Below, one piece after another: positions 1,000 to 35,915 of a DNA stretch of 64,000 nucleotides. How positions within the stretch are numbered: position 1 is the first letter of the stretch; each line of letters starts with the position of its first letter. A program made the translations under genes and the position numbers. The notes under the pieces are model-generated. The model was not told where the DNA came from. It did not search any database and saw only the letters and a program-made list of their open reading frames with translations. Origin of the DNA: an uncultured Acidobacteriota bacterium (GTDB lineage Bacteria; Acidobacteriota; Thermoanaerobaculia; UBA5066); assembly GCA_963801475.1 (NCBI GenBank), contig CAWDEX010000003.1:11638-75637 (forward strand), in the 5' to 3' direction.

Positions 1000-1126
1000 C
1001 GGCCGGGCTTCTCTTGGTCTGTTCGCGGCCATGTTCCCAGCCCTTCCGGCGATGGCGCAGGTGCCGCTCGGAACCGCTGCCCGTATTGGCGTGCTCGGCG
1101 GCCAGGGTGTCACGAACACGGGGCCT
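1000..1126 (+). pseudogene. 5' fragment of a DUF3494/ice-binding-like secreted protein
   Basis: Signal-like ASLGLFAAMFPALPAMA, then QVPLGTAARIGVLGGQGVTNTGP, matching the LGTAAxFxVLxGxxVTNTGP start of DUF3494 domains. Similarity ends where a repeat copy begins. Confidence 0.55.
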
Positions 1127-1280
1127 GAAAACATAGGTCGCATAGCCGACCGACAGAGGAGCCCTGTCCCTTTCCTGCGGACCTTGAAGGGTCCAGCGGT
1201 TGACAGGCACCCGTCAATCCTCATGGCACGCTTGCACCGCGACGCTTCAGCCGCGTCTGACCGGGTGTTTTACTTCCGGG
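1121..1280 (+). repeat. Dispersed repeat family, degenerate core copy
   Basis: ggcctgaaaacataggtcgcatagccgaccgacagaggagccc...agggtccagcggttgacaggcacccg aligns by eye with 4103-4195. Confidence 0.7.
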
Positions 1281-3908: not shown

Positions 3909-3926
3909 GATATCCGTGGAGGGCTG

Positions 3927-4384
3927 TGTAGGGGTGCCATGGGGATTGCCGGGCGTCTTGTCGGGCAACCCAGGACCACAATGGGGATTGCGGCCCGCAG
4001 CGAAGAAGTGTGGAGTGCCAGTTTGTCGGAGACGACACGCTTCCCGGTGCAGTTCATTCAGAGGCAGTTCCGGGCTGAGAACGGGTTGAATGTTCTCTGT
4101 TTGGCCCGAGAATACGGTTCGTGCGGCCGACCGAGTGGGGAGCCACTTCACGTTCCCGGGAGCCTGACAGGGTTTAGCGGTTTACAGATACCCCGCGACG
4201 ACCTCGCGGGGTCCCGCGTCTAAAGGTCGTGGAATCTGAAGGGTTTCCGCATGGCGTGTCGGCCCTGGCCTGTTCTCTGCCGCTGGAACTGAGAACGCCG
4301 AGTCACCCGCCAGAAGCCTTCTCTGGCCCGGTAGCCGCTCTCTGGCGGCCTGAAATGTCGAGAGCGGCCGAAGGCGGTTAACAG
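3927..4384 (+). repeat. Dispersed repeat family, near-complete copy (left end plus core)
   Basis: Starts TGTAGGGGTGCCATGGGGATTGCC; GGAGCCA 4139-4145; GCGGTTTACAG 4177-4187; hairpin ACCCCGCGA-cgacc-TCGCGGGGT 4190-4212; second GCGGTTAACAG 4374-4384. Confidence 0.85.
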
Positions 4385-4389
4385 GGACC

Positions 4390-4776
4390 TCAGGACTCGG
4401 AGTAAGTCGAGTAGTCCACCGTCAGTTCTTCGTTCGCTCGGATATTCCGCAACGCGAAGAACTCGTCGTTGCTGTCGAACGCGACGTTGGGATGATCGGA
4501 GTGGTTCAGGTACCACGACGGAGTCAGTTGATTGAAGTTCTTCGGACAGCCGTACCGTCCGTCTTCCTTTACGGTGAAATCCTCATAGAACGCGCGTAGA
4601 GCCTTCGGCAACCGCGAGACCACAGTCTCTGGTACCCACCGTATCTGTGTGCTGTCGTGGTTGAAGAGATAGGTGCCTTTCCGAATTCGCTTGATGGCTA
4701 TGACGCCGACTCCGTGAATTCGTGAAGGTGCTAGCCGAGTAAAGACATCGGCGTGAGGCCAGCGCCGTGACCGCAT
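4390..4776 (-). CDS. SET-domain protein (putative lysine methyltransferase)
   Basis: SRIHGVGVIA (GxG motif), YLNHSDHPNV (NHS motif), IRANEELTVDY (ELxxDY); AGGAGG RBS. Confidence 0.9.
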   Translation of the reverse strand: MRSRRWPHADVFTRLAPSRIHGVGVIAIKRIRKGTYLFNHDSTQIRWVPETVVSRLPKALRAFYEDFTVKEDGRYGCPKNFNQLTPSWYLNHSDHPNVAFDSNDEFFALRNIRANEELTVDYSTYSES

Positions 4777-4969
4777 AGGTCGGACCTCCTTCGCGGCGTT
4801 ACGGTGGACTGGAAAGGAGTCTATGCGAGACAGCCGGGTGCTGCGGGAAGGACGCAATGGGAGTTGCGGCAGGGCCGAAAGGGCGACTGGCGCGGGAGGG
4901 AAGGAAAGCGACGATAACCTCGGTGTCGGGAGAATGCCAGTCAGGCCGGACGGAGCCGCGCCATCTCCC

Positions 4970-7366
4970 TCAGCTGCCGTTTACCCCCAGGCGCGCTCTC
5001 TCTTTCCATCGGGCCGCATCTCTATCCAGTTTCATCCTGCCGTAGAGATCGGCGATGAGTCTGTAGGTCACAACGGACGGGTTCTGTCTCGCGAAGCCGT
5101 TGAGGACCTCATGGACCTTCTGCACATCGTATCCCCAGGCATAAAGGAGGCACAGCGACGTGGCGGCGTCCGCATTCGTCGGGTTGAGGGTCAACTCGGT
5201 CAGGAGGTGCCGTTCCGCTTCCTGTCGGAGCTGGGTCCGCCCGGCTTCGTCTTCGATGTTGCGGCTTTCCTGAAGGAGCAGGGCTCCCAGGTAGAAATGG
5301 ATGTAAGGCAAGGTCCGGGGGGAACGCCCCTGGAGTCCTTCGAGGGCTTTCTGGAACAAGGGAAGCGCCTTCGAATACTCCCGGTTTCGATACGACAGGA
5401 CCCCTTCGATGTACGGAACGGCGGCGGGTAGGCCTCGTGCTGCTCGAGTTGCCGCCTCTCGGGCGGCTTCGGGTCGTCCTTCGGTGACTTCCAGAAAGGC
5501 GCGCCGGGCCTCCGCTTCATCCGGCTTTTCGAAGGCGGCTATTTCCAGCTCTTTCCTGGCTTCCTCGGGTCGCTTGAGCTGAACGAGGATGTCGACGAGA
5601 TCAAAGCGTTGCCGACTTCTCTTCGGTGCTATCAGAAGGCTCTGTTTCAGCGCGTCCGCTGCCTTGTCGAGGTCGCCAAGGCGCCGGTATGTTTCGCTCA
5701 GCTCGTCCCACGCGTCGATCATTCGAGGACTGCCCGCCAGGACCTTCTGGAGAATCCCGGCCACCTTGGTAAAGAAGAAAGCGCTCTTCAGCCTCATGGC
5801 CTGGCGGTAGAGGACCAGATCTCCGATACGATCCTTCGGATCGGGAGCCGCGTCGTCCCCGCGTGAATCCAGCGTCCCGGAGCCGATATAGCCGAGGGCC
5901 CGGAGCTTCTTGACCTGTTCCTCGTCGACGGTGTCCGGGGCCTTGAGCACCGTTTGCCCCACGTAGCTCCTCAACCCCCTGTGCATCTTCTCGTACTCGA
6001 GGGCTACGGACCGGGAAAGCCCCGCGCTCGGCGACACGTCCGAAGTGCGCTGGGAGAGGATGTTGTGTACCTCCCCTGGGTCCTGCCGGACATCGTAGAG
6101 TTCCTGCCGCGGAGCGAGAATGAAGCTGTACTGAGAGCCCGTCAGGCTGAAGAGTTCTTTCCAGCCGAAGTGCAGGCGGCCGTACAGGCTCTCCGCATAT
6201 ATCTGGCGGTCTTCGGGGAACTCCTGGCCTCGAAGCGCCGGAATCAGCGACTTCCCCGGAAGCTGCGAATTCGGCGGGAGACCGGCCCAGTCGAAGATGG
6301 TCGGTGCGACGTCGATGAGCTGCACCGGAGCCTGAACGCGACTCCCGCCCTTCTGGCTCCCGGGAAGCTTGATGATGAGCGGGACGCGCGTCACCTCCCG
6401 GTACAGGAAGACCCCGTGGTCGGGTTCACCGTGGTCACCGAGGGCTTCGCCATGGTCCGAAAGCAGGACGATCAGGCTCGAATCGTAGAGGCCCAGCTTC
6501 CGTAGCCCCGCAAAGAGGTTGCCCACGATCTCGTCGCTGTACATGACTTCCCCGTCATAGGGAGCCCTGTCCGGCCGCAGGAATCGGGTGGGTGGCTTGT
6601 ACGGCGTGTGAGGTTCGTAAAAGTGGACGAACAGGAAGACGGGACCCTTCTTGCCCACCGAGGATCCGGATCCCGTGGATTGTTTGGTCAACCAGGCCAG
6701 AGCCCGGCCGAGGGTCTCAATTCCGTCTCGTTGGACCTCCGTGACAGGAACCTGGGCATCGGTCACTTTCATGTCATCGTCGAACCACTCGAAACCCTGG
6801 GAGATTCCCGTCGATGAGTGCAGCACGTACGCGGAGACGGCCCCGCCTGTGGAATAGCCGGCTTGCTTCAATTCCGTCGCCAGCGTTCTGGCGCCCCTGT
6901 CGACCTGGAAACCAATGTTGTTTCGCACTCCATGCACAGGAGGCAGCAAGCCGGTGAAGATGGATGCGTGGGCCGGGAGCGTCAGTGGAACGTGGGTGTA
7001 GCAGTTCTCGAAGACGACGCCGCCGCGGGCCAGTTCGTCGATGGCGGGCGTCTGGATCTTTCCATAGCCGTAGATCGGCAATCGGTCAGCCCTCAACGTG
7101 TCGATGGAGATGAGGATGACCGGCGTGCGGCGAGCGGCTGCACCGTACAGGCGAATGAGCGTCAGAGTGAAGAATCCCAGGACCAGGACGAGGAGCGCAG
7201 CCAGAGCGACTTTCCGGGTTCTCGGCCGGATGGCACGGATAACACGCTGGAGGGCGCCCGTCCGTTCAGGGTGGCGCCGGGTGTGTACGGAGCTTTCTGC
7301 ACGGGGCTGGGCGCGCCCGGGCTCATCCGGGGTGCGATTCTTCGTGCCGCTTCGTTTCCGGGCCAT
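4970..7366 (-). CDS. Sulfatase-like hydrolase/transferase with C-terminal TPR repeats
   Basis: ILISIDTLRADRL, PLTLPAHASIFTG, HFYEPHTPY, LSDHGE; N-terminal TM; TPR-like helices after LRALGYI. Confidence 0.9.
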   Translation of the reverse strand: MARKRSGTKNRTPDEPGRAQPRAESSVHTRRHPERTGALQRVIRAIRPRTRKVALAALLVLVLGFFTLTLIRLYGAAARRTPVILISIDTLRADRLPIYGYGKIQTPAIDELARGGVVFENCYTHVPLTLPAHASIFTGLLPPVHGVRNNIGFQVDRGARTLATELKQAGYSTGGAVSAYVLHSSTGISQGFEWFDDDMKVTDAQVPVTEVQRDGIETLGRALAWLTKQSTGSGSSVGKKGPVFLFVHFYEPHTPYKPPTRFLRPDRAPYDGEVMYSDEIVGNLFAGLRKLGLYDSSLIVLLSDHGEALGDHGEPDHGVFLYREVTRVPLIIKLPGSQKGGSRVQAPVQLIDVAPTIFDWAGLPPNSQLPGKSLIPALRGQEFPEDRQIYAESLYGRLHFGWKELFSLTGSQYSFILAPRQELYDVRQDPGEVHNILSQRTSDVSPSAGLSRSVALEYEKMHRGLRSYVGQTVLKAPDTVDEEQVKKLRALGYIGSGTLDSRGDDAAPDPKDRIGDLVLYRQAMRLKSAFFFTKVAGILQKVLAGSPRMIDAWDELSETYRRLGDLDKAADALKQSLLIAPKRSRQRFDLVDILVQLKRPEEARKELEIAAFEKPDEAEARRAFLEVTEGRPEAAREAATRAARGLPAAVPYIEGVLSYRNREYSKALPLFQKALEGLQGRSPRTLPYIHFYLGALLLQESRNIEDEAGRTQLRQEAERHLLTELTLNPTNADAATSLCLLYAWGYDVQKVHEVLNGFARQNPSVVTYRLIADLYGRMKLDRDAARWKERARLGVNGS

Positions 7367-7544
7367 GGAGCGCTTTCTTCTCGCAGGTTTCGAGCGGAAT
7401 CGAGAGGTCAAGCTCTGGGAGGTAACTCTGTTCCCGTGGCTGTCACTTGATTGGCTCGCGATGACGCGGCGTGTCCCGCCCCTCAGTCACCGACAGGATT
7501 GAATCGGAGCCTCCTACAAGCGCCTCGGAATGCTAGCACCCGGG

Positions 7545-7710
7545 GGGGTCTTTTCCCGTTTCTTGGTCCAGACCGACTCTAGTTAGGGGGCGTAGATTTC
7601 GGTTCGTTCCTAGGCTCCGGGGGAGCGTGGAGAACGGATCGTTGAGGAAAAGCCGGTTCAGCGAACAGAAGATCGCACGGGCCCTGGGACAGGGTGAGGC
7701 CCGGGAGCTG
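7545..7710 (+). mobile_element. IS3-family left-end remnant with OrfA N-terminus
   Basis: IR-like cttttcccgtttcttggtcca, then GGAG RBS and LRKSRFSEQKIARALGQGEA (compare IS3 OrfA MRKSRFSEEQI); the rest of the transposase is absent. Confidence 0.6.
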
Positions 7711-7894
7711 GGGAGTGCCGCGGGGATCGGACGGGCGGCCGGGTGGACCGAACGGGATGCGGCGGGATCGTCGGGACATCCGAGGCGACCGGACTGGAAT
7801 GAGCGCATGACGAGCCCTCGTCGGGCCAGAATGCCAGCGCCCCCGGCCCGAATCGGGGCTACTGCCGATGGCGGGAAACCGGCTCCAGGGGGTG

Positions 7895-7960
7895 ACCGCC
7901 GCCGGCTATTCCCAACGCGCCCTTACAATACCCCGCAATTCCCAATGCATCCCTCCAACT
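7895..7960 (+). repeat. Right-end-type fragment of the dispersed repeat (two inverted end motifs)
   Basis: cgccggctattcccaacgcgcccttaca and ccccgcaattcccaatgcatccctcc resemble 18268-18290 cgccggcaattcccatcgcgc. Confidence 0.6.
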
Positions 7961-8010
7961 CCGCGGAGGTCAGCGAGTTTCCTGGCTGAGTCCCGGGGTC
8001 ACCGCCCTGC

Positions 8011-10239
8011 TCATCGGGTGTCGGGCGCACGGTTCGGCCGGTCGCAGGCCTCCTTGTCCACAGACCACCACGCCATGTAAGCGGTGAAGAAGGTCAGGCG
8101 GGAGTCCGGGTTCTGCACGTCCCCGTCCCCGCCATAGTTGAGGGTGAAGGGCTTTCGCGTAATGGTCAGGTGCAGGTGATTCGGGTTGCCGTCGGCGGGC
8201 AGGAGTGTTTCCGTGATCTGCACTCCGGACCACCTCGGGTCCGCCGGCTCGGCCTCGCGTGCCGTCTTGAGGCGCGCCGCCGGACAGGGGCGGGCCGGCG
8301 GCCATACGTCGATCTCCAGCGATCTCTCGGCGAAGACCGGTGACGCGACGATCTTCGTCACGACGGCCGGTGCCCCGCCCGTCAGGGCCCGCCAGTTTCC
8401 TGTCAGCCGGAGGGGCCTGTTCCAGGTGGCGCCAAGCACCGGCGCGTAGTCTGCGGTCTGAAGGTAGGAACTCTCGAGAAGGCTGGCCGGGTGAAGCTCC
8501 GCATGCCAGTCGGGATGACCGCAGTCGATGATCCAGAGGCCGCGTACGACGGCCCGGTCCCCCGGTTCGGGGCGAAAGCCGACCGGGTAGTACCACTGCT
8601 CCCCTTCGACCCCGAGCGCACCGCGCAGGTCTGCAACCTGGTTTCCTTGCCGGTACTCGCTGTGCTTGGACTGGCAGTCACCCCCGTCGCGGTCGTGAAG
8701 CATCGACTCGTCACGCGCCAGAAGGTGCCGGAAGTCGGCATCGGGGAGAAGGTTGATCTCCCAGTCGGCGCATTGCTGGCCGTTGTCGGCGGTCGAGAGA
8801 TCCGGGCAGTTCTGGACGGCGTCGTTGTGCGTCATGACGTCTGAATGCACCCCGATGTAACGGCCGTCCGGCATGCCGTTGTGGTCGCCGCTCCAGTCGC
8901 CTCCCGAGAGAAAGGAGTTCGTCACGAGACCTTCGGCGCTGAGGAAGGCGTGATCTCTCACGACCGTCCACTCCGGATCGCCCCAGTGAATGCACCCGTC
9001 AGAGGTTACGGGCGCATGCTTGATCTCCCACTTGCAGATCGCTCCGGACTGTACGATCCCGGCGCCGGGGGGGTCGGCCGTCGGAAAGCCGGCGAGATTC
9101 CCGGCCGTCCATTCGGCCGGCGGGACCCGTCGGGGCGCACACACCTTGATCCAGCGCGGCGCGCTCGACCGCCACGACGTTCCCGCGCCGCCGCAGAACC
9201 CGGGCAGAAACGTGGGCCTCCAGGAGGCCGGATCGCGGTTGAGGGCTTGCAGGTCGACGAAGCCGACGCCGGAGAGCGGGAGATCCCAGGGCCTCGCCTG
9301 CCAGTCGCGCTGCGGGCTCTTGTCGAACGCGAGATCAGCCGGATACCAGATCGGAGCTTCCGTCGGCGTAAAGGCTAGATAGATGCAGCCATCCGCGTGC
9401 ATCTCGGCGGAATTGAGGGGCCGGTTGCTGAGCGTCGTCTTCCCGTCCGGCGAACCATCCTGGAATATCTGGAAGTGCGTGATGGCGGCCCCGTGGGCGT
9501 CCGGCGTCATCGGAAGCCCGAAGGGCACTTCGGCCTGCGAGCGCAGAAGGGTCACGACCCGGGCTAGCTCCGGCACGTCGGTGGCAACCGGCGTCTTCGA
9601 GGAGGCAGTCCACGGCCCGCAGTCGCGGCACGAGGGGGTGGCGCCGCGGTCAATGACGAGGTCCACGACGGCCTTGTAGACCCCCGCGCACTGGTTGTTG
9701 ACGCCGTCGTCATGATTCCAGTACCCGTTGTCGCCGATGCCGCCGTCATCCACGTAACCGAGGGCGAAGTGGCCGGCGACGGGCACGACGAAGGAAGGAC
9801 CGATCCAGTGCTTTAGCGTCTGAGGGTTGTTGTCGCCCGTGACACTTGCGATCTGCACGGTCCCGTAGTACTGGGAGTCGAGGTGTCCGTTGCCGTCGTC
9901 GGGGTCGACGTACCGCTTCCACGTCGATCCCCAACCGCCGGTCTGAACGCAACCTGAGGCCGAGAGCCGGACGACGTCGCCCGGGTTCAACCGGATGGCG
10001 GTGTAGTCGGTGAGCGACCGGTCGACGGAGGGAAACTCGATGTGCCACGCTTCCCGCCCGGGCGCGGGCTTCGTGCAGGTGATGACGTCCGCTCCGTGCG
10101 GGTAGTGGTCGTTGTGGCCGGGCTGGAAGCGGGGGGGCGGCGGCGTGTCGCAAGCGTCGGCGAGCGCGGGGCCCCGGCCGAGAAGACAGGACAAGACCGG
10201 GACTGCGGCGATAAACCTGAGAACGAGAACTCGTCTCAT
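8011..10239 (-). CDS. Large secreted Cys-rich hypothetical protein (possible LecA/PA-IL-like N-terminal domain)
   Basis: Signal peptide; IRLNPGDVVRLSASG...LGYVDD..GDNG; C-terminal GDRAVVRGLWIIDCGH..HAELHP. Confidence 0.75.
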   Translation of the reverse strand: MRRVLVLRFIAAVPVLSCLLGRGPALADACDTPPPPRFQPGHNDHYPHGADVITCTKPAPGREAWHIEFPSVDRSLTDYTAIRLNPGDVVRLSASGCVQTGGWGSTWKRYVDPDDGNGHLDSQYYGTVQIASVTGDNNPQTLKHWIGPSFVVPVAGHFALGYVDDGGIGDNGYWNHDDGVNNQCAGVYKAVVDLVIDRGATPSCRDCGPWTASSKTPVATDVPELARVVTLLRSQAEVPFGLPMTPDAHGAAITHFQIFQDGSPDGKTTLSNRPLNSAEMHADGCIYLAFTPTEAPIWYPADLAFDKSPQRDWQARPWDLPLSGVGFVDLQALNRDPASWRPTFLPGFCGGAGTSWRSSAPRWIKVCAPRRVPPAEWTAGNLAGFPTADPPGAGIVQSGAICKWEIKHAPVTSDGCIHWGDPEWTVVRDHAFLSAEGLVTNSFLSGGDWSGDHNGMPDGRYIGVHSDVMTHNDAVQNCPDLSTADNGQQCADWEINLLPDADFRHLLARDESMLHDRDGGDCQSKHSEYRQGNQVADLRGALGVEGEQWYYPVGFRPEPGDRAVVRGLWIIDCGHPDWHAELHPASLLESSYLQTADYAPVLGATWNRPLRLTGNWRALTGGAPAVVTKIVASPVFAERSLEIDVWPPARPCPAARLKTAREAEPADPRWSGVQITETLLPADGNPNHLHLTITRKPFTLNYGGDGDVQNPDSRLTFFTAYMAWWSVDKEACDRPNRAPDTR

Positions 10240-10406
10240 TTTGCGCCCTCAGGCGAGCGTACGCTTTCTGCGGGAAGAAAGTCCATTCACGTCCCCTTCC
10301 CCGGCACCGGTGAACGCGTCTGCCCCGGGGAACGCGATGGTTGCGAATCCGGGCGACACGCCGATGGCGCCCACGCCACCCCGGTCTCCTCACTGTCGGC
10401 GCCGCT

Positions 10407-10570
10407 GCCCGGAGTCGCCGGTGGTCCCGAGAATCCGGTTAGCGCGGCCGACCGGCTGCGGAGCCACTACTCTCCCCCGCGAACTCAAGGAGGGTCCGCG
10501 GTTAACAGGAACCCGACGACGACCTCGCGGGGTTTCGTGCCTGAAGGGCCGGACTCAGAAGGACTTCCGG
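10407..10570 (+). repeat. Dispersed repeat family, core copy
   Basis: ccgagaatccggttagcgcggccgaccggctgcGGAGCCActactctcccccgcgaac...GCGGTTAACAGgaacccgacgacgacctcgcgggg...tcagaaggacttccg. Confidence 0.85.
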
Positions 10571-10594
10571 CTCAGGAGCGGCCGATTCTCTTGG

Positions 10595-11490
10595 CTACCG
10601 CGGCGCGTCGTTGTTCGGCGGCGAGATCGGCGCCACGCTTCCCTGCCACTCGACCGTGATGGTGCCTCCGAAGCTGCCGTCGGTGAATTTCTTCTGGAGG
10701 AGGCGGAAATTTCTGTCATACGAGACCTGGAGGGCAGGAAGCGGGAGGACTGCGGTGTCGTCTGGCGGCACCGGGAACATGTCCGCACCTTCCAGGATGC
10801 CGAAGAGCGGCGCCACCGTGTAGGTCCCGTAGCAGTTCTGGCCGCCGCTGATCGTCGCGATGAACGGGATGTCCCCCGCCGACGCCGCGCCAAGTGCGAG
10901 GCCGATCGCGCCCTGTCGCGAGTTCGTGTCCACTTTCGCTCCCGACGCCAGGACGAGGGGGAGCGAAGCCCCTCCCCCGGAGGCCGGCGCCGCGAAGGTG
11001 CCGTGGCCGCGGAGGGTCACGGTGCAGCCTCCCGCGGCCGCCGAGCCGGAGCCCGTCAGGGGCATGGAGGAGTCCCTGGTCAGGAAGATCCCACGAACCG
11101 GGAACGATGGCGACGCCCCCGGCTTCTCGCGGTAGCTGCCGACGTCCGCGCGGAGGCGAATCGTCCCGTTGCCCTCGAACTTCCAGCCCGAGAGGCCCAT
11201 CGCGTTCGACCACAGGTAGTGGAGAGGGATGTCCCACTCCGTGAGCTGGCGCGCGTTGCTCTTTCGCTCGGCCCCCATCTCTCCCGGAACCACGACGTAG
11301 ACGTCCCCGTTCCCGTCGAGCCGTCGTACTGGTTGTGCCAGGCGACCGACACTTCGACCCGCCGCTGCGAGAGGAGGAGCGTCGTCGCCGCCGGTGCGGA
11401 CGAAGACACGACGGCCGAGCCGAGGACGAGCGTCACGGCCGCGACGAGACCCGTCCTCGAGAACACCTGGTTCGAGTTCCTGATCTTCAT
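10595..11490 (-). pseudogene. Secreted protein split or internally deleted (frame change near 11290-11310)
   Basis: Frame 1: signal peptide plus RRVEVSVAWHNQYDGSTGTG. Frame 2 begins DVYVVVPG..RKSNARQLTEW (IPT/TIG-end-like) and runs to 10595. Confidence 0.55.
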
Positions 11491-11605
11491 GAACTACCCC
11501 CCAACCCGGTCACTGCCCGCTTCGGCAACAAGCATGGAAGTGACAGCCCAATAATGGAACATACGATCGGGTGGCGGGCGTCACTGCCGGGCTCATGCCG
11601 GGTGC

Positions 11606-11660
11606 CGTAGGGACTCGATGGGAATTGCCGGGGCTTCTCTCGCCAGGAAACCAGGACCCG
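11606..11660 (+). repeat. Left-end fragment of the dispersed repeat
   Basis: GTAGGGACTCGATGGGAATTGCCGGGC..ccaggacc resembles 3928-3977. Confidence 0.6.
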
Positions 11661-11879
11661 AGTTTCCTCTGTTCCGGCTGACCAGGGTGGTCTTCCACCC
11701 AGCGCCGGCCCGGGGTGCGAGGAGACGCGGTCGACTGAGGCACCCGGGCGTCTGTTCAGGCAAGCCATGGGGTTCTGGCGAGGCCCAAGGAGGTCGGCCT
11801 CCTCGCCCCGTGGCCCCCCCTGCCTCCCGCGGGACTAGAATTCGTGCCGGCTCTCCGGAAAGGGCTGATCGAGAAAAGG

Positions 11880-13514: not shown

Positions 13515-14665
13515 AGAACCGCCGCGAACTCCTCGTCTCGGCCGTCGCCGCGGCCGGAGCGGCGGCGACGGGACGGCTCGTGCGCGCCTCGGGCCTCCAG
13601 AACGCCGACCGCGCACCGGCGCTGCGGACACCGACGGCACCGTCACCCGGCCTCGCCGCGCAGCCGGCCCGCTGGTGGTCGCCGCTCCCCGGCCGGGGGG
13701 TCGCCTGCGGCCTCTGCTTCCGCGGGTGCGAGATCCCGGAGGGGGAGCGCGGCGAGTGCGGCGTCCGCGAGAACCGGAGCGGCCAGCTGAAGACGCTCGT
13801 CCACTCCCGCCCCGTCGCCCTCAACCTCGACCCGATCGAGAAGAAGCCGTTCTTCCACGTCCTCCCCGGGACCTCGGCGCTCTCTCTCGGGACCGCCGGA
13901 TGCAACTTCCACTGCCGCTGGTGCCAGAACTGGGAGATCTCGCAGTCGCGTCCGGAGAAGATCCCCGTCCCGACGCGGACGCCCGGGGAGATCGCTGCGC
14001 TTGCCCTGAAGAGGGGGGCTCCCGTCGTCGCGTGCACCTACTCGGAGCCGACGGTCTTCGCCGAGTACGTCCTCGACCTCGCCGTCGCGGCGCGGAAGGC
14101 GGGGCTGAAGACGGTCGTCGTCTCGAACGGCTCGATCCGCGAGGAGCCGCTTCGCGAACTCTGCCCGGTCCTCGCCGCCTACAAGGTCGACCTGAAGGCC
14201 TGGTCGGAGAAGACCTACCGCGAGATGTGCAGCGGCGAGCGGAAGGCGGTCTTGGACACGCTCCGGAGGCTCGCGAGGGCGAAGCTCTGGACCGAAGTCG
14301 TCACGCTCGTCATCCCGACGATCAACGACTCCGAGGCCGAGATCCGCTCCCTCGCGCGCTTCGTGAGGGACGAGGTAGGGCGCGAGACGCCCCTGCACTT
14401 CACGCGCTTCAACCCGACCTACCGGCTGACGAACCTCCCGCCGACGCCCGTCGCGACGCTCGAGAAGGCGCGGGAGATCGCGCTCGCCGAGGGGCTCCCG
14501 TTCGCCTACGTCGGGAACGTCCCCGGGCACCCGGGGGAGTCGACGTACTGTCCCGGCTGCAAGGCGCGGCTCATCCACCGCGTCGGGATGGCGACGGTCG
14601 CGAACCGGCTCAAGAAGGGGGCCTGCCCCGACTGCAGCCGCGCGATCCCGGGCGTCTGGAGTTGA
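13511..14665 (+). CDS. amrS: AmmeMemoRadiSam radical SAM enzyme
   Basis: CGLCFRGC..GECGVREN, DPIEKKPFFH, GCNFHCRWCQNWEISQ (CxxxCxxC), TYCPGC, CPDC..IPGVW; ATGA overlap with amrB; Tat-like KNRRELL. Confidence 0.95.
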   Translation: MKNRRELLVSAVAAAGAAATGRLVRASGLQNADRAPALRTPTAPSPGLAAQPARWWSPLPGRGVACGLCFRGCEIPEGERGECGVRENRSGQLKTLVHSRPVALNLDPIEKKPFFHVLPGTSALSLGTAGCNFHCRWCQNWEISQSRPEKIPVPTRTPGEIAALALKRGAPVVACTYSEPTVFAEYVLDLAVAARKAGLKTVVVSNGSIREEPLRELCPVLAAYKVDLKAWSEKTYREMCSGERKAVLDTLRRLARAKLWTEVVTLVIPTINDSEAEIRSLARFVRDEVGRETPLHFTRFNPTYRLTNLPPTPVATLEKAREIALAEGLPFAYVGNVPGHPGESTYCPGCKARLIHRVGMATVANRLKKGACPDCSRAIPGVWS

Positions 14666-14668
14666 AGG

Positions 14669-16921
14669 TCAGCGGGGGCGCGCCGCACCGAGGGCCGCGA
14701 GGAGGACGACCGCGGCGGCGAGGAGACCGGTGACCGTCATCCCGAGCGCGGGGACGAGCGCGACGCCCGCGAGGAGGGCCGCGGCGGCCGCCCCGAGGTG
14801 GTCGGCCGCCTCGAACGCCGCGGCGGAAGCGCCCGCGCCCTGTCCCTCCTCGAGGAGGACGGCGGTCGCGAAGGGGAAGAGCGACCCCGTGGCCGCGCCG
14901 GAGGCGAGGAGGAGGAGGGCGTGCGCGCCGAAGGCGGCCGCCGGCGGAGCGGAGGAGAGGCGCGCGAGCGCGGGGAGGGCGAACGCGACGGCGGCGAAGG
15001 CGGCGCCCACCGCGAGGAGGGGTACGAAAAGGCCGCGGCGCGGCGGCGCGGAGCGCGCAGCGACGAGCCGGCGCGCGCCGGCCGCCCCGGAGGCGAGGCC
15101 CATCATGAACGCGGCCGTCAGCGACCCGAGCGCGCCGTAGAGGCTCCCCTCGCGCGTCTGGAAGGAGAGGAGGAGGAGAAAAGAGAGGGCCATGCCGGCG
15201 GCGCCCGTGGCGGCGGCGCCGCTCCGGGCCGCGCGGCTTGCGCGGGCCGGGGCGACGAGGCCCCGGAGCGCGACGGCGGCGGCCGGGAGGAGGACGAGGA
15301 GGACGAGGAGCGGCGCCGGCAGCCGCGCGAGAGCTCCGAGCGCGCGGGCGGCGGGGCTGGCCGTCTCGAGCCCGCGGCGGGCGAGGGCGAAGAGGAGCGA
15401 GACGGGGCGGTCGTCACGGCTCGGTGGGACGCCCCCCGCGGCGTCGTCGAGCGCGGCCTCGAGTCGCGTGACGTTCCCCGGTTCGAGGAGCAGCGGGAAG
15501 AGCTCGGGGGCGAAGGCCCCGGCGGCGATCTGCCGCACGTGGAAGCGGTCGGCGACGACGCCCGGGTCGAGCGTGACGGCCGATGGATCGAAGCCCGCCA
15601 CGAGGAGGCTGTCGGGGCCGGGCGTCGCGTGGACGACGGGGAAGACGGACCGGAGCGCCCTCCAGACCGAGCCGCCGAGCGCCGCGGTCGGGCCAGTGAG
15701 CGCCGCGGCGGAGGTCCGGAGGGAGACGACGAGAACGCCGCTCGGCGTGAGGCGCGCGGCGGCGGCGCGGAACGTCTCCTCGGTCAGGAGGCGGGCGCGG
15801 GAGAGCGTGACCGGGTCGAGGCCGGCGAGGAGGACGAGGTCCCACGCGCCCACGGAGCGTGCGAGGAAGCGGCGCGGGTCGTCCTCGACGATGCGGACGC
15901 GCGGGTCGAGGAGGGCCCGGCGGTCGGTCTCGGGAAGCCGCTCGCGGACGAAGGCGAGGGCGCGCGGGTCGGGCTCGACGAGGTCGACCCGCTCGGGGCC
16001 GTGGAGGAGGAGGAACCGAAGGGCGCCGTGGGCCACCTCGGAGGTCGCGAGGATCCGCCGCGGCGACGGGGCGAGGGAGCCGGCGAGGTGAGCGAACCCC
16101 TCGCTCGTGAAGGGATCGGGGAAGCTCGCGGCGTAGGCGCCGCTCGAGTAGAGGACGAGCGGGCCGTCGCCGCCGAGCGCGAGGTGCGCGTACGGCGTGT
16201 CGCGGACGGCGCGGAGGGGCGTTCCCGGCGCGAGGGCGCCGAAGCGGGCCCGCTCCGTCGCGTCGTCGAGGGGGCGGGCGGCGGCGAGCGCCGCGGCGAG
16301 GAGGGCGAGCGCGGCGAGGGGGCCGCGCCGCGCGGGAAGCCGCGACGCCCCGACGAGGGCCGCGGCGGCGAGCCCCGCGAGGAGGGCCGCGGGGAGCGGC
16401 CGGAGGAGCGTCCCGACGAGGAGGCTCGCGGCGCATCCGGCGACGAGAGAGCCGACCGACTCGACGACGTAGAGGCGGGCGAGCGCCGCGCCCGCCGGCA
16501 GCTGCCGGGCGGCAGCGGCGGCGAGTGCCGCGAACGAGGCGCCGACGAGCGCCCCGGCGGGGAGGAGCGTTGCCGCGGCGAGGACGAGAACGGTCCCGAG
16601 GCCGGGCAGCTCGCCGGGCGGCGGCGCGGCGGCGAGCTGGAGGAGGCGGAGCGCGACGATCCCGGCTGCCCCTGCGATCGCGAGGAGGGAAAGGAGCGGC
16701 GCGCCGAGGCGCGGGAGACGTTCCGGCGAGGCCCGCCGCGCGGCCAGCGCGCCGAGGGTGATGCCGAGGAGCCAGGCGGCGAGGCCGGTGCCGATCGCCG
16801 CCTCGTCCCCCGCGGCCGAGACGAGGAGTTCGCGCAGGAGGAGGACCTGGGCGGCGGTCGCCGCGAAGCCGGCTGCGGCGAGCGCCGGGAGGAGCCGTGG
16901 GAGGGCGTCGGGTCCGGGCAC
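14669..16921 (-). CDS. Spermidine-synthase-like membrane protein (TM - SAM domain - TM)
   Basis: AQVLLLRELL, LYVVESVGS, DTPY, VEPDP, DPRVRIVEDDPRRFL, DDRP; TM blocks at both ends. Confidence 0.85.
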   Translation of the reverse strand: MPGPDALPRLLPALAAAGFAATAAQVLLLRELLVSAAGDEAAIGTGLAAWLLGITLGALAARRASPERLPRLGAPLLSLLAIAGAAGIVALRLLQLAAAPPPGELPGLGTVLVLAAATLLPAGALVGASFAALAAAAARQLPAGAALARLYVVESVGSLVAGCAASLLVGTLLRPLPAALLAGLAAAALVGASRLPARRGPLAALALLAAALAAARPLDDATERARFGALAPGTPLRAVRDTPYAHLALGGDGPLVLYSSGAYAASFPDPFTSEGFAHLAGSLAPSPRRILATSEVAHGALRFLLLHGPERVDLVEPDPRALAFVRERLPETDRRALLDPRVRIVEDDPRRFLARSVGAWDLVLLAGLDPVTLSRARLLTEETFRAAAARLTPSGVLVVSLRTSAAALTGPTAALGGSVWRALRSVFPVVHATPGPDSLLVAGFDPSAVTLDPGVVADRFHVRQIAAGAFAPELFPLLLEPGNVTRLEAALDDAAGGVPPSRDDRPVSLLFALARRGLETASPAARALGALARLPAPLLVLLVLLPAAAVALRGLVAPARASRAARSGAAATGAAGMALSFLLLLSFQTREGSLYGALGSLTAAFMMGLASGAAGARRLVAARSAPPRRGLFVPLLAVGAAFAAVAFALPALARLSSAPPAAAFGAHALLLLASGAATGSLFPFATAVLLEEGQGAGASAAAFEAADHLGAAAAALLAGVALVPALGMTVTGLLAAAVVLLAALGAARPR

Positions 16922-16981
16922 GGGGTCTCCCGTCCAGCTTAGGCCCGAAAGGGTCCGACTCAGTAGCAGAGGTAGGAGAAG

Positions 16982-17266
16982 GAGTTCTGACCCGAGAACG
17001 TCTCGAACTTCTCAGTTCGGCCGAGGAACTGAGTTCGCGTGGCGGATCGACTGCGGAGCCACTCTTCTCCCCCGCGAACGTCTGGCAGATTCGCGGTAAA
17101 CAGGAACCCCGCGATCGTCTCGCGGGGTTTCGCGTCTAAAGTTCGTGTAGTCAGAAGGGCTTCCGCGCGGGGCGAGGCTCGGCCGGTTAACAGCCCGCGC
17201 CGTGGCGCGATCGGACTCAGGTCTCTGCGCGCCGCAGCCTCCGGCAGGTCTCATTGCGCCCCGACA
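16982..17266 (+). repeat. Dispersed repeat family, core plus right end
   Basis: GGAGCCA 17055-17061; GCGGTAAACAG; hairpin AACCCCGCGA-tcgtc-TCGCGGGGTT; second CGGTTAACAG near 17184; GACTCAGGTCTCTGCGCGCCGCA; ends CATTGCGCCCCGACA. Confidence 0.85.
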
Positions 17267-17302
17267 GTGATCGGTGTCGCGTCGACCGGCGGGACGGCCT
17301 CT

Positions 17303-17761
17303 CTAGTGGCGCGGCTCCAGGACGATCTCCCGCGCAAGACGATCGCCGATGATCTCGCGGATCTCGAGGCGGTCCTTGTATCCCTGCATCTGCTTCTGGT
17401 CGTCACCGCTGATCTTCTGGGATAGGGCGTCTGCCTTGACCTCGTTCGCCTCCATCGTGCCGAGGTCCTTGAACTCGGTCATCAAGATGATGTTGAAGTC
17501 CTGAGTGCCATGGCCTTCGGTGGTGAGCACCTTCCACGAAAGGATCAGCCCCTCCTTCTTCATCGCCTCCTGTTCCGCCTTCCAGGTGGTGGCGATGTAG
17601 TTGAGGTACGCCGTGTCCATTCCCGGCTTGATGCGGATGAACGCCATCGTCCAGACCGATCCGGGGCGGTACGGGCGCTTGACCTGCGCGTAAGCGGAAA
17701 GGCCTCCGAAGAGGAGTGCGGCCGCGATCGAGGCAACGACGATTCTCTGTTTCAGCTTCAT
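17303..17761 (-). CDS. Secreted hypothetical protein (NIPSNAP/dimeric alpha-beta barrel-like)
   Basis: Signal peptide AYA|Q; IRIKPGMDTAYLNY...KKEGLILSWKV; AAGGAG RBS. Confidence 0.8.
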   Translation of the reverse strand: MKLKQRIVVASIAAALLFGGLSAYAQVKRPYRPGSVWTMAFIRIKPGMDTAYLNYIATTWKAEQEAMKKEGLILSWKVLTTEGHGTQDFNIILMTEFKDLGTMEANEVKADALSQKISGDDQKQMQGYKDRLEIREIIGDRLAREIVLEPRH

Positions 17762-17816
17762 TTGTCCCTGCTCCTTACTCTTGAATGCGTTTGAGACTCT
17801 ATCCCATCTCTCCGAT

Positions 17817-18305
17817 TGTAGGGGCGCAGTGAGAATTGCGACGCCCGGATCGCACGGAAGAGCGGGGTGGCAGTCTTGGAAAGGTCGCGCACACTCCGGG
17901 CGAACCCGCTCATTCGAAAGCGGTTCCGGGCTGATAACGGGTTGAAGGTCCTCTGCTCGGACTGAGAACGCAGGGCGTCTGGCCGACCGACTAGGGAGCC
18001 ACTTTACTTTCCCGCGAACGTTTGGAAGGTCTGCGGTTAACAGACGCCCCGCGACGACCTCGCGGGGCGTCGTCTAGAGGGCGTGTGGTCAGAAGGACTG
18101 CGCTATCGGGTCGCTGAATCCGGACCCAAAGCCGCTTTCCGACGAGCAGAAATGCCGAGAACGCCTGAGAGCGGCTGACGGGTGGGCCGGGAGGACGTTT
18201 CGCTGGTTACCAGGCGCGCGGGTTTTCACCGAGCTGAGGCATGACTCTGGTCTCTGCGCGCCGCACCCGCCGGCAATTCCCATCGCGCGGCTATGCGCCC
18301 CCACA
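17817..18305 (+). mobile_element. Dispersed repeat family, apparently full-length copy (MITE-like, imperfect TIRs)
   Basis: Left end TGTAGGGGCGCAGTGAGAATTGC; right end reverse complement TGTGGGGGCGCATAG..TGGGAATTGCC; core GGAGCCA 17995-18001, GCGGTTAACAG, hairpin 18043-18071; no target-site duplication seen. Confidence 0.7.
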
Positions 18306-18389
18306 GCTGGCCACGTGGCCCTGCCGCGCGTGGGTGCGCGGCAGGGCCGCCGTCAGGCAAACGCGACGAGCGAAACCAGCCCCGAGCGT

Positions 18390-18989
18390 TCAGGGAATGT
18401 CGACGAAGAAGCCGGTCACCGTGTAGCTGACGGTATCGGTCCCGACGTCGGAATTGCGGATCGCCGACACGGTCACGTTGGTGCCGGGATCGCAGTAGGC
18501 GCGAAGCTGCTCGTGGGCGATGAAGCCAATGGTGTCGACCGCGCTTTTGATCGTCGTCTGCGGGACGAAGCCGAATCCGCCGAGGGAACCGCCGCCCTGG
18601 TTGCCCAGGCTGAAGGAGACGATCTGGTTTCCGCCGGTCAGGATGTTGGAGCGCATTGTGACGTATTCGATGACCAGACGCTTGCCGGCGGGGACGGCGA
18701 ACGAATCGCTTCCGCCGAAGGCCGGCGCCTCGATCTGGAACGACCCGAAATGTTGAAACGGCTGCCGTGCCGGCTCGTCGCGATCCTGGACCGTCACGGT
18801 CGGGAGACTGGCCACGGCAACCGTCGGCGTGTTGGTCACAGTCGTCGGAATGGGGTTCGCCGGCGAATTGGCGACGATCACGTCCTTGACCGCGTCGGCG
18901 ATCGCGCGACCGGTCCCGCCAAGGTTGAAAAGAAGGGCGATGATGGCGAGTCCCATTGCGGCGTAGGCGAGACGGCTGTGCTTCTGCAT
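18390..18989 (-). CDS. Secreted hypothetical protein
   Basis: Signal peptide; DVIVANSPANPIP and VPAGKRLVIEYV motifs; CAGGAGG RBS. Confidence 0.8.
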   Translation of the reverse strand: MQKHSRLAYAAMGLAIIALLFNLGGTGRAIADAVKDVIVANSPANPIPTTVTNTPTVAVASLPTVTVQDRDEPARQPFQHFGSFQIEAPAFGGSDSFAVPAGKRLVIEYVTMRSNILTGGNQIVSFSLGNQGGGSLGGFGFVPQTTIKSAVDTIGFIAHEQLRAYCDPGTNVTVSAIRNSDVGTDTVSYTVTGFFVDIP

Positions 18990-18992
18990 CTG

Positions 18993-19033
18993 AGTACCCT
19001 CCTGAATTGATCTTAGTACCCTCCTGAATGGAT
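18993..19033. repeat. 22-bp-period tandem duplication containing the RBS
   Basis: agtaccctcctgaattgat (18993) and agtaccctcctgaatggat (19015). Confidence 0.85.
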
Positions 19034-19133
19034 AGCGGGATCTGAGCTGTGCTGGCCGCTCGTCTCCCGGTCCCTGCACCATCCGCCGCGCCGATGAGAC
19101 GATGCGTTGAATCTCCAGAGCGCCCGAACCGGG

Positions 19134-19495
19134 GTAGGGACGTAGTGGGAATTGCCGGGACTGCAGAAGCGCAATCGAAGTTGGGGCAGGGACTTACTGG
19201 AGCACGACGTGGCTGGGGCCTCCGCATAGGCAGGGTTCCATCCCGTTGTGCCTCACCTGAAGGTGGTGCTCTTCTCGGGCTCGACGCCGGGCCCTGAACG
19301 AGAACGGCCAGCCGTTGCCCGGAGTCGAGACACTGGACCCCACTCGGCGACGCTTGGTGTGCTTCCCCCGGCCGCTGGTGCGGCCTCGTGACCGGGGTCG
19401 CACTCTCACAGAGACGTCAAGTGCCGCGGGGTAACCGATTCATTCAGAACCGATTTAGAGCCGAGAACGGGTCAGTTGATCTCTGTTCTGTCCGA
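19134..19495 (+). repeat. Dispersed repeat family, left end plus 5' part of core
   Basis: GTAGGGACGTAGTGGGAATTGCCGGG at 19134; ttcattcagaaccgatttagagccgagaacgggtc..tctctgtt at 19439 aligns with 4053-4110. Confidence 0.7.
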
Positions 19496-19515
19496 GGTTG
19501 ACGACGACTTGCCGA

Positions 19516-21291
19516 TCATTGAACCGGGCCCTCGCTTTTCGCAAGCGGACGCAAGCGCTGCCTGACGAGCGCGAGCAATGCCGCCTCCGGAGAACCCGGA
19601 CATAAGTCATCATCGCCTGGCTGTGCGTCAGTTCCTTTCGGCTTCATGCAATGCTGTTGCAAATAGCGAGAGACGCCCAGAAACTTATCCAACGGTAGTC
19701 CCGCAGCTTCGAGCAGCGCGGCCGGGAGTGCGCTCACCGCAGTATCGACCGGCCCTGTTCCGGTCGCGCGATTGCGCCAGAGCAAGTACGGGACTTTACG
19801 AAGCGCGGGTTCCTGCCAAGGGTTGCTGACGCCGAACGCGGCGAACACCGCCGGCATCGCTGGCGCGTGATCGCCCAGAAACAGCAGCGCACCGGGACGC
19901 CCTGAGTTTTCAAGTCCTTCGATGACGCAGCCCGCCATAGCCGCCGCGTTACGGACATGGTAGAGATAGCGCTGAAGTTGCAGATCGATCTGTTCCGGTA
20001 GATGATAATTCTCCGTATCGGAAGGCTGTAATACGTCTGTCTGGCCACGATCGAAACTCCAGGGACCGTGATTCTCCATCGAAACCGCGAAAATGAAGCG
20101 CGGCTTGTCGCTATCCTCTAACAAAACCCGGATCTTCTGACAGACCGCCCGATCGCTCACGTACGGGCCGTCGTACGTGGGAGCCTGAAAGTCGGTCAGC
20201 GACAGAAAGGTATCGAACCCGAGCCGCGGGTAGGCCTCGTGCCGGCGCCAGAAGGTGTCATGAAACGGATGGATGGCTATCGTCTCGTAGCCAAGCGATT
20301 TCAGGTGCCACGGAACAGACGCGATCGGCGCAGTGACGACGGTCAAGTACGGATAGTCCATCTCGGCGCCGAAAAGAGTCGCCGGGACGCCGGTCAGAAG
20401 TGAAAACTCGGTACGCAAGGTTGCACCACCGTACGTGTCCACCGCCGCCATGCCGTATTGTGCCGTCGATTTCAACTGATCCCACAACGCATAGGCGCTC
20501 GGTGAAAATGCCGCATCCAGTACGCGGAAGTCGAAGAATCCTTCGCTCTGAATGACGACGAGATTCGGCAAGTCGTCGACGGTATTCCCTGGAGTGCCTA
20601 TCGATGCGGACAACTGTGTGACGAGTGCCAGGTCCTCCGCCTCGATTACCGGCGGCACGAAATAGCTTTGTCGGGCCGAATTCATCAGCGTGGCGATCAA
20701 GCCATGCCGCTTTACGGAGGACATTGGATCGTGATGATCGAATGGCGGTAACAGGTTTGCGTAGACGCGCTGAAGCGGGGCCCGGGGCATCAACAGCACG
20801 GGCTGTATTTGCCACAGCAGGAGAAGGCCTGCCGTGATGGAGATTGCCGCCCAGCGTTTGTCGGTCATGAGTGGTCGTTCGAGCCGAATCGCCCAGAACG
20901 GCAGCGCCAGAACAACAAGGAACAACGGAACGAACAACCACTGCTCGCGCAGGTACTTTTCGAACAAGGCCGGATTTGCCAACACCTGACCAAAAACGAT
21001 AAAGTCGGAGGCGACGACGGGTTGGCTTATGATCGACCACTTGAAGTTGTTGCCGAGGGTAATGGCCAGAAGAGCGATGACGGTGAGCGCCGTTGCCGAC
21101 AGTGAGCGCCTCACGATAAGGAGGAATGCCAGGAAGAAGTAGGCGACCGGCAGACCGTTCAGCAACAAGGCCGTGGGTGTCAGGCGGTCAAAGGGCGAGT
21201 CCGGTCTGGGTAATGCAATAATCGTACAGAGCACCATCGTGCCCAACAGGACGAAGAGAACGATACACTTGCGGTGAGTATCGAGGAGCAT
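19516..21291 (-). CDS. LTA synthase family membrane sulfatase-like protein
   Basis: N-terminal TMs; PNLVVIQSEGFFD, YGGATLRTEFSLLTG, IHP, SMENHGPW, FLGDHAP. Confidence 0.9.
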   Translation of the reverse strand: MLLDTHRKCIVLFVLLGTMVLCTIIALPRPDSPFDRLTPTALLLNGLPVAYFFLAFLLIVRRSLSATALTVIALLAITLGNNFKWSIISQPVVASDFIVFGQVLANPALFEKYLREQWLFVPLFLVVLALPFWAIRLERPLMTDKRWAAISITAGLLLLWQIQPVLLMPRAPLQRVYANLLPPFDHHDPMSSVKRHGLIATLMNSARQSYFVPPVIEAEDLALVTQLSASIGTPGNTVDDLPNLVVIQSEGFFDFRVLDAAFSPSAYALWDQLKSTAQYGMAAVDTYGGATLRTEFSLLTGVPATLFGAEMDYPYLTVVTAPIASVPWHLKSLGYETIAIHPFHDTFWRRHEAYPRLGFDTFLSLTDFQAPTYDGPYVSDRAVCQKIRVLLEDSDKPRFIFAVSMENHGPWSFDRGQTDVLQPSDTENYHLPEQIDLQLQRYLYHVRNAAAMAGCVIEGLENSGRPGALLFLGDHAPAMPAVFAAFGVSNPWQEPALRKVPYLLWRNRATGTGPVDTAVSALPAALLEAAGLPLDKFLGVSRYLQQHCMKPKGTDAQPGDDDLCPGSPEAALLALVRQRLRPLAKSEGPVQ

Positions 21292-35830: not shown

Positions 35831-35915
35831 AGATGCGCGTCGATAGCGACCGCGGTCAGAACGGGAAGCCGACTGTGGCGGGAATGCTGACGAGACTCGT
35901 GCCCTGCACCTTGAA

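Follow-up and report, generated by a model that had tools for sequence, protein, structure and literature searches.

Integrons and clusters of attC sites lacking integron-integrases (CALINs) are periodic gene-plus-site arrays with unrelated cargo, and they may lie without a nearby integrase. An array of similar appearance was noticed in a preliminary description of the DNA analysed here, a stretch of 64,000 nucleotides (the window) from an uncultured bacterium of the Acidobacteriota (Thermoanaerobaculia; assembly GCA_963801475.1, contig CAWDEX010000003.1, positions 11,638 to 75,637). Between positions 3927 and 21291, accessory genes on the minus strand were each said to be followed by a copy or an end-fragment of a repeat, which we call R. 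This array is not an integron: it has no IntI and no attC consensus, it is anchored at a tRNA gene, and its sites are far longer than attC. The region is best explained as the inner part of an accretion island anchored at the tRNA-Asn gene. Tandem accretion at a tRNA gene is an already described process, which takes an unusual form here.

Stacked islands have been described in Dehalococcoides, where the ssrA islands lie downstream of a single-copy tRNA-like gene and carry direct repeats of its 3′ end (McMurdie et al. 2011, PMC3146451). A module with a CcrB-like large serine recombinase is found beside attL in some of these islands, the region varies among strains, and 15 islands without the module were interpreted as cis-mobilizable (PMC3146451). 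Our locus is similar in the stacking of islets at a single-copy gene, in the 3′-end repeats and in the absence of a recombinase from some of them. The target is tRNA-Asn here and transfer-messenger RNA there, and the junction spans approximately 420–545 nucleotides here, compared with 20 bp plus a 15-bp motif there. Our locus also differs in the partner (DUF2924), in the lack of a recombinase-bearing island in the genus and in junctions framed by an insertion sequence (IS). Cis-mobilizable elements (CIMEs) are decayed elements that have kept attL and attR but lost the integrase, and that lie in tandem at the 3′ end of tRNA genes (Pavlovic 2004 and Bellanger 2011, via PMC5704250). As summarized in that secondary source, they involve tyrosine integrases, partner integrative and conjugative or integrative and mobilizable elements, and Firmicutes, whereas the stack here consists of many small islets of one to five genes, and conjugation genes were not observed. 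Tycheposons of Prochlorococcus form tRNA-seeded islands in which successive integrations push older elements inward and in which partial tRNAs and degraded remnants are scattered (bioRxiv 10.1101/2020.12.28.424599). As described there, they have mostly tyrosine recombinases together with replication modules, several tRNA targets and no IS-framed junctions. A literature search, with supplementary files outside its range, found nothing on this system for Acidobacteria or tRNA-Asn islands, nor on arrays of IS481, tRNA and miniature inverted-repeat transposable elements (MITEs).

The source genome (G000) is 4.21 Mb in size with a mean GC content of 69%, and the window lies on its contig C3. It was compared with congeners, among which G002, G003 and G004 carry arrays, and with other genera of the same family (G010, G017, G021, G022, G057, G062, G063 and G064). 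R was searched with a profile hidden Markov model (HMM) made from four copies and later with a profile HMM of the full unit; positions prefixed with m refer to the 547 positions of the latter (m1–547). It is probable, in our judgement, that the array arose by tandem accretion of now integrase-less islets through a serine integrase specific for tRNA-Asn, that it was overprinted by an IS and MITE restricted to the array, and that it is a fossil in this genome.

The anchoring at the tRNA gene is directly observed. The sole tRNA-Asn(GTT) gene of the genome is located at C2:956092-956166, and similarity to R starts within it, at m179, with the last 13 nucleotides of the tRNA, and continues to the end of contig C2 inside M, the right terminal motif of R. 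The same start at m179 inside tRNA-Asn is found in G002, G004, G022, G010, G063, G062, G057 and G064, and more weakly in G017. The upstream flank of tRNA-Asn (uridine kinase, TyrRS and GluQRS) is conserved in the congeners, and no M is present at the tRNA-Asn/R junction itself. Contig C2 breaks off inside M, 330 nucleotides past tRNA-Asn (C2:956453-956493), and the assembly break was thus caused by the repeat. The end of C2 likely adjoins the start of C3; a comparison of contig ends found no overlap joining the two.

R is approximately 545 nucleotides long and composite, with a tRNA-Asn-derived core between ends that are IS481-like inverted repeats. The left end, M′, spans 26–30 nucleotides and starts with TGTAGGGGCGCAATGGGAATTGC. 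It is followed by a conserved stretch of approximately 140 nucleotides (the P arm) and then by CTG(C/G)GGAGCCACT. The core itself consists of a copy of the last 13 nucleotides of tRNA-Asn with trailer and hairpin. To the right of the tRNA-like sequence there are two hairpins, the second of which is CCCCGCGA-N4-5-TCGCGGGG followed by TTT; beyond them, approximately 200 nucleotides hold two more GGTTAACAG motifs, and the right end is a piece of approximately 60 nucleotides that finishes in CCGGCAATTCCCATTGCGCCCCTACA (M), an inverted copy of the left end. The P′ arm, of approximately 270 nucleotides, contains the trailer and the terminator hairpin. The tRNA 3′-end copy (GGAGCCA type) is present in all 23 non-identical aligned R cores. 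R carries the 3′ end of the tRNA and is not a tRNA pseudogene, because the first 60 nucleotides of tRNA-Asn have no counterpart in it (score 34 against m95–176, shuffle mean 29.3, p = 0.165).

With the four-copy HMM, 10 matches were obtained in the genome at E ≤ 1e-3, seven of them on the window contig, all on the plus strand (best E = 6e-51), one at the end of C2 and two weak ones on C1. The weak matches (C1:1551447-1551559, E = 9e-10; C1:2286229-2286328, E = 1e-6) cover mostly the trailer-hairpin part and, lying outside the array, may be similar terminators. The 9-mer GGTTAACAG occurs seven times in the 4.2-Mb genome, and six occurrences are in plus-strand R copies (window positions 4376-4384, 10500-10508, 17185-17193 and 18035-18043; C2:956199 and C2:956429). 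The seventh, reversed, is the anticodon loop of tRNA-Asn (CTGTTAACC) at C2:956122; GGTTAACAG includes the Asn codon AAC. Recurrent end points of R at m427–467 were considered as crossover sites and dropped: recombinase-bearing copies also stop there, so the natural end of the conserved arm is the better explanation. Sigma-54 and CRISPR readings of M were dropped after inspection by eye.

The relatives show both an occupied and an empty site. In G021, the trailer of tRNA-Asn is unrelated to R and no R match is found within 20 kb; this is the empty site. In G057 there is a single 3.9-kb element without a recombinase, with tRNA plus m179–463 at attL and m42–192 at attR. Similarity in attR halts right after GAGCCA, which places the exchange inside CTGCGGAGCCA. 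Both the G057 pair and the G021 site come from other genera of the same family. At the G057 attR (L152:4180-4210), the tRNA-like end and the native trailer together form a perfect 18-nucleotide palindrome, GAGCCATTCGAATGGCTC. R also contains a dyad, GTTCG(T/C)G at m161–167 and CGCGAAC at m201–207, centred on m184; 18 of 23 cores retain the left motif and 16 of 23 the right one. The T-loop of the tRNA, GTTCGAG, lies 5 nucleotides nearer to the core than the left motif of R (17 versus 22 nucleotides). An attP of serine integrases is approximately 50 bp long with a dyad, and the half-sites of attB are approximately 5 bp shorter; the spacings in R and in the tRNA would fit such an attB/attP geometry. 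R copies adjacent to a recombinase, like the G057 pair, have no M ends. The attachment module proper therefore spans approximately m42–463, and the IS ends are an addition.

The position of a recombinase at this junction is likewise established in relatives. In G022, tRNA-Asn and R (m179–459) are directly followed by a DUF2924 gene, a 441-aa large serine recombinase (Pfam Resolvase 5.6e-42, Recombinase 4.9e-14, Zn-ribbon 9.9e-17), which is not encoded in the window, and a 141-aa ORF. Thirteen such recombinase loci were found in 63 genomes of the family, and approximately 1.5 kb of flank was viewed at each. R lies immediately upstream of the recombinase module in 5 of the 13 (one each in G022, G010 and G063, and two in G062), with the tRNA visible in three; 2 of the 13 are cut by contig ends. 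One of the G062 loci (G062:C12) has a full internal R, and G062:C29 is frameshifted. A different large serine recombinase, with 28% identity to that of G022, is found in G024 (L135, G024:C2:324320-327734), convergent with tRNA-Asn and approximately 460 nucleotides from its 3′ end. Within the family, serine integrases appear to use tRNA-Asn as a general target.

These results bear on what the preliminary description made of the array. Its statements that the sites match neither attC nor dif and that the window contains no recombinase were borne out, and a large serine recombinase, one of the kinds of enzyme it proposed to look for, exists in sister genera, with none in the array of G000 or in those of the congeners. 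A search for HUH nucleases, also proposed there and pursued by us with a Y1 transposase of the kind that mobilizes repetitive extragenic palindromes (REP/RAYT, suggested by the GTAG start of M), gave matches outside the arrays in G000, G003 and G004 and none in G002 or G010, and the idea was rejected. Gene capture was sustained insofar as modules differ and change order among related genomes. As an alternative to integrons without an anchor it fails, given that the start of the array falls within the 3′ end of the sole tRNA-Asn gene, that the last 13 nucleotides of this tRNA recur at the junctions, and that relatives show an attL/attR pair, an empty site and a large serine recombinase at the same junction.

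The repeat copies and cargo of the window are as follows.

1122..1223, plus strand: decayed R copy (m147–248), then a degenerate M end, ahead of the DUF2062-methyltransferase block (nhmmer with the full R model, E = 6.5e-12; alignment with G002)
1416..2603, plus strand: cargo, a DUF2062 and S-adenosylmethionine (SAM) methyltransferase gene (F16), in a block 87% identical in G002 (Pfam, blastn)
3926..4395, plus strand: R copy (m4–440) with M′ at 3926-3954, tRNA 3′-end copy TGGGGAGCCACT at 4136-4147 and hairpin CCCCGCGA..TCGCGGGG at 4191-4211; it finishes at the GGTTAACAG motif, 4376-4384, and the nhmmer match reaches 4395 (nhmmer, sequence)
4390..4857, minus strand: cargo, SET-domain gene fused straight to the end of the R arm (Pfam SET, E = 1.1e-10)
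4844..4869, plus strand: degenerate solo M′ (GCAATGGGAGTTGCGG) (fuzzy motif scan, alignment)
4951..7573, minus strand: cargo block with a sulfatase and TPR gene at 4970-7411, 95.2% identical in G003 and 93.5% in G004, at other array positions (Pfam, blastn)
7578..7958, plus strand: unit with a degenerate M′ and two tandem M ends (7901-7928 and 7932-7958), its interior unrelated to R (alignment, motif scan)
8011..10239, minus strand: cargo, 742-aa protein with no Pfam family (ORF, Pfam)
10422..10589, plus strand: R copy (m145–321) with tRNA 3′-end copy and hairpin (E = 8e-31)
10595..11293, minus strand: cargo, 232-aa protein with no Pfam family (ORF, Pfam)
11605..11633, plus strand: solo M′; the neighbouring 180 nucleotides recur with 86% identity at another place in the G002 array (motif scan, blastn)
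11814..16952, no single strand: multi-gene cargo block of 70–80% GC with a 556-aa ORF, a radical-SAM frame and a 750-aa protein with a spermidine-synthase-like domain (Pfam, blastn)
16976..17267, plus strand: R copy with an internal deletion (m103–303 and m439–544), M end at 17239-17267 (full R model, alignment)
17303..17761, minus strand: cargo, 152-aa protein (ORF, Pfam)
17815..18295, plus strand: most complete R copy (m3–543), with M′, P arm, tRNA 3′-end copy, trailer hairpins, three GGTTAACAG-type motifs (the third is GGTTACCAG) and M (E = 1.8e-127)
18390..19082, minus strand: cargo, 230-aa protein with no Pfam family (ORF, Pfam)
19134..19496, plus strand: left part of an R copy, M′ and m6–154 (E = 5e-15)
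19516..21291, minus strand: sulfatase-domain protein (591 aa) that matches fragments of the distal G002 array at 83% identity (Pfam, blastn)
35696..35851, plus strand: most distal decayed R copy (m159–315) (E = 2e-11), as far as which the array may extend

All seven minus-strand genes named in the preliminary description have a copy or an end-fragment of the repeat past their stop codon, as stated there, at distances of 0 nucleotides for the SET gene (4390), 101 for the sulfatase-TPR gene (4970), 53 for the gene at 8011, 6 for that at 10595, 36 for that at 17303, 95 for that at 18390 and 20 for the sulfatase-domain gene (19516). The minus-strand layout and the gene-plus-repeat periodicity hold for these seven genes and not for the whole interval, which contains plus-strand ORFs (11844-13514 and the radical-SAM frame up to 14665) and, inside the multi-gene block, the gene at 14669-16921 with no repeat after its stop. 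The label "lipoteichoic acid synthase" for the gene at 19516 had to be replaced by that of the sulfatase domain found with Pfam. The reported differences in base composition are confirmed, with blocks ranging from 56–62% up to 70–80% GC.

Cargo blocks are 87–96% identical and differently ordered in the four congeneric arrays, while the R copies reach no more than 70–80% identity. R-like sequence was found in 12 of 41 related genomes, G000 included, and in 5 of 7 within the genus; the other 29 of the 41 gave no R match, which, like the unrelated trailer in G021, points to an arm derived from the element. In G002, G003 and G004 the R copies form a cluster with a single orientation, and wherever the viewed stretch includes tRNA-Asn the cluster lies downstream of it; the G003 stretch contains no tRNA. 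The order is F6..F15 / F16 / SET, sulfatase-TPR, x / x, F26, x, F25 / x in G000 and F22.. / sulfatase-TPR / F26, F25 / F6, F7 in G004, and in G003 the sulfatase-TPR block stands alone between two R copies, with the outer ends of M abutting it on both sides in the boundary alignment. Gene order thus varies among the congeners, with the changes of module located at or within the repeats, so that the outcomes named in the preliminary description as speaking against gene capture, such as a gene order shared by relatives, are not what was found. The block at 11814-16952, whose GC content is well above the genome mean, is, together with the R copy to its right, 93.6% identical in G004, the only congener that shares it. 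Among metagenome contigs, one breaks at 4951, the edge of the sulfatase-TPR block, and another matches the window only over 17239-17874 and then diverges. A contig of a related strain (approximately 93% identical, window 4654-6903) connects the 5′ portion of the SET gene with the sulfatase-TPR gene; this adjacency is therefore not unique to G000, though G003 and G004 have no SET gene there.

The ends of R are the inverted repeats of an IS481-like element, a point that the preliminary description had missed. Elements of the IS481 family have a single rve-type transposase ORF, inverted repeats of approximately 30 nucleotides beginning with TGT, and short non-autonomous derivatives. A 343-aa protein with an rve domain (E = 2.1e-9) is encoded in G002 by a 1.5-kb unit that has M′ at one end and M at the other; the protein aligns with positions 2–279 of the 284 of NCBIfam NF033577 at 77.7 bits, where the cut-off is 224. 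Homologues of this transposase, 65–75% identical, lie beside exact M matches in at least 10 loci chosen only for M, and in the relatives G002, L062/L128 and L048 the inverted repeats are placed approximately 110 nucleotides from one end of the transposase gene and approximately 390 from the other. The single rve transposase ORF, the terminal inverted repeats of approximately 30 nucleotides with their TGT start and the short derivatives with the same ends are IS481-like; the score below the cut-off, the lack of target-site duplications at three complete copies, the confinement of copies to one locus and a derivative with an integrase attachment site are not. The transposase family is present in 13 of 24 genomes of the array-bearing family and in 0 of 16 genomes of two sister families. 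No homologue is found in G000, and the matches are most numerous where M is most abundant (seven in G010 and six in G022). Ordinary rve elements in the arrays of relatives (F11/F23 and F20/F21) were considered and look like unrelated IS copies.

M was searched with its 23-nucleotide core at up to three mismatches in five genomes, with the reversed pattern as control. The search gave 4 matches in G000, 16 in G002, 19 in G003, 17 in G004 and 111 in G010, and the control gave 0 in all five. M lies in the tRNA-Asn array in 4 of 4 cases in G000, 16 of 16 in G002 and 15 of 17 in G004; in G003, 13 of 19 are in the main stretch and three more are on a contig that also has R pieces, and the 111 matches in G010 are spread across many small contigs. 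The outer boundary of M is sharp at TACA, beyond which conservation vanishes. Among 212 M sites over all loci, the outer neighbouring gene faces M with its stop in 105 of 149 cases (median distance 61 nucleotides), as counted with crude ORF calls. In other genera, the end piece m486–545 outnumbers R cores by approximately 7:1 and occurs in direct orientation every 0.3–4 kb, its sharp outer edge turned towards gene stops. The 30-nucleotide M is also found as spacerless head-to-tail triplets or doublets (L014:5851-5941 in G002 and L017:7897-7959 in G003), which are hard to explain by ordinary transposition. In a sister genus (L096:55-1300), an IS left end with approximately 110 nucleotides of IS leader stands before each small gene, and the next IS end follows approximately 30–50 nucleotides past the gene, all in one direction, as if cargo had replaced the transposase.

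Under the accretion model that we favour, mobile islets would successively and site-specifically integrate at the 3′-terminal bases of the sole tRNA-Asn gene. Every islet would bring its own CTG[C/G]GGAGCCA copy and conserved arms (P, approximately 140 nucleotides; P′, approximately 270 nucleotides), so that every junction in the stack would look like an attP (P-core-P′). The enzyme would most likely be the large serine recombinase with its DUF2924 partner, kept in sister genera and lost from this genus, and the islets here would consequently be integrase-less, CIME-like fossils. The attachment module would be framed by the IS481-like inverted repeats, and multiplication of the IS and its short derivatives inside the array would account for the end-fragments beside gene stops. 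The G000 array has degenerate ends and neither enzyme, and therefore looks like a fossil. That a serine recombinase was the agent is our inference, as are the direction and order of events and any present activity.

Several observations weigh against this model. Neither the window nor the rest of contig C3 encodes a serine or tyrosine recombinase, and none of the eight PF00589 matches in G000 is on C3. The arrays of G002–G004 contain no tyrosine recombinase, these genomes have no serine-recombinase match at all, and the G022-type recombinase is not found in G000 or seven congeners; its role here is accordingly inferred from other genera. Six of the 13 recombinase loci have neither R nor tRNA in the 1.5 kb or so viewed, although in one of these, G017, a longer view puts the module at most 4.6 kb downstream of tRNA-Asn, in inverted orientation. 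Module boundaries are not all at the core: the block common to G000 and G004 passes through the core up to m466, and that common to G002 and G003 breaks near m121 and m266. Cargo often exactly abuts the outer end of the IS-type motif, which would also be expected from a process driven by the transposase. Serine integrases normally recombine attP with attB only, and the model has to assume that the tRNA-proximal attL served as a target again and again. The sequencing runs, of which none was listed for RNA and the best for DNA reached at most 0.17 of sampled words, consisted of assembled contigs and gave no read-level evidence of excision; four runs led to short contigs of related strains, and R-to-R joints in metagenome contigs were attributed to the repeats.

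The last of the boundary observations leads to an explanation that we regard as unlikely, namely that the IS481-like DDE transposase builds the array. Units bounded by M (R, the 1.5-kb IS, or an IS left-end leader plus gene) would insert preferentially beside resident M ends, somewhat like the stacking of genes between ends in IS26 translocatable-unit arrays, and the tRNA-like core would be a passenger or a targeting feature. The identity of M with the inverted repeats of transposase-bearing units argues for it, as do the restriction of the transposase to the array-bearing family with multiple copies where M is abundant, the sharp TACA boundary abutted by cargo, the neighbouring genes that face M with their stops, the excess of directly oriented end pieces over R cores and the tandem M-M-M triplets. 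However, single ends in direct orientation are no substrate for a DDE transposase, and the three complete copies without target-site duplications do not fit. The array starts inside the tRNA with no M at the junction, the G057 attL/attR and the recombinase-bearing R copies lack M ends, and G000 has no transposase homologue.

A second possibility, which we consider rather improbable, combines the two enzymes. The IS481-like transposase would mobilize R as a MITE, and R, which would carry a complete serine-integrase attP, would thereby be an attachment site that moves; two copies around a gene would form an integrase-movable cassette for tRNA-Asn. If true, gene capture would here depend on two enzymes, the birth of cassettes would be explained, and the system would have grown into super-arrays with more than 100 copies of the end motif in sister genera.

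Very unlikely, in our view, is that R is a functional intergenic module (a terminator or insulator, or a small RNA related to tRNA-Asn) and that modules are swapped by homologous recombination between R copies after DNA uptake, with no dedicated recombinase. The terminator hairpin with TTT is kept in 21 of 21 cores, RNAalifold on these 21 cores adds a 5-bp stem with two compensatory columns, six of the seven genomic copies of GGTTAACAG are in R with one reversed in the anticodon loop, and some mosaic breakpoints lie inside R, near m121, all of which would be in keeping with a functional module. Yet the covariation term is only -0.46 kcal/mol, RNAalifold found no structure besides these two, Rfam gave no match at the gathering score across the window and, at E ≤ 10 in 3900-4420, only three matches at chance level, and homologous recombination is poorly served by R copies that are just 70–80% identical within a genome. 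The start at m179 inside the tRNA, the attL/attR pair and the adjacent recombinase would be left unexplained. It is extremely improbable that a tyrosine recombinase acts here on folded single-strand sites in the manner of an integron: although the gene-plus-site periodicity, the resemblance of GTTAAC to fused AAC/GTT core halves and the inverted repeats bounding R recall such a system, none of the four congeneric arrays contains or adjoins a PF00589 gene, GGTTAACAG fits neither RYYYAAC nor GTTRRRY by inspection of the R consensus, and the sites are 5–10 times the length of attC with conserved rather than variable centres.

For annotation, the tRNA-anchored reading explains both the contig break and the run of unrelated accessory genes in these metagenome-assembled genomes. 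It extends tRNA-anchored islet stacking of the serine-integrase type to soil Acidobacteriota (Thermoanaerobaculia), and it yields a concrete candidate enzyme together with a candidate site of approximately 50 bp. An integrase attachment module is here joined, unusually, to the ends of an IS restricted to one locus; if the IS and the integrase act together, this would bear on the origin of integrase-less gene cassettes.

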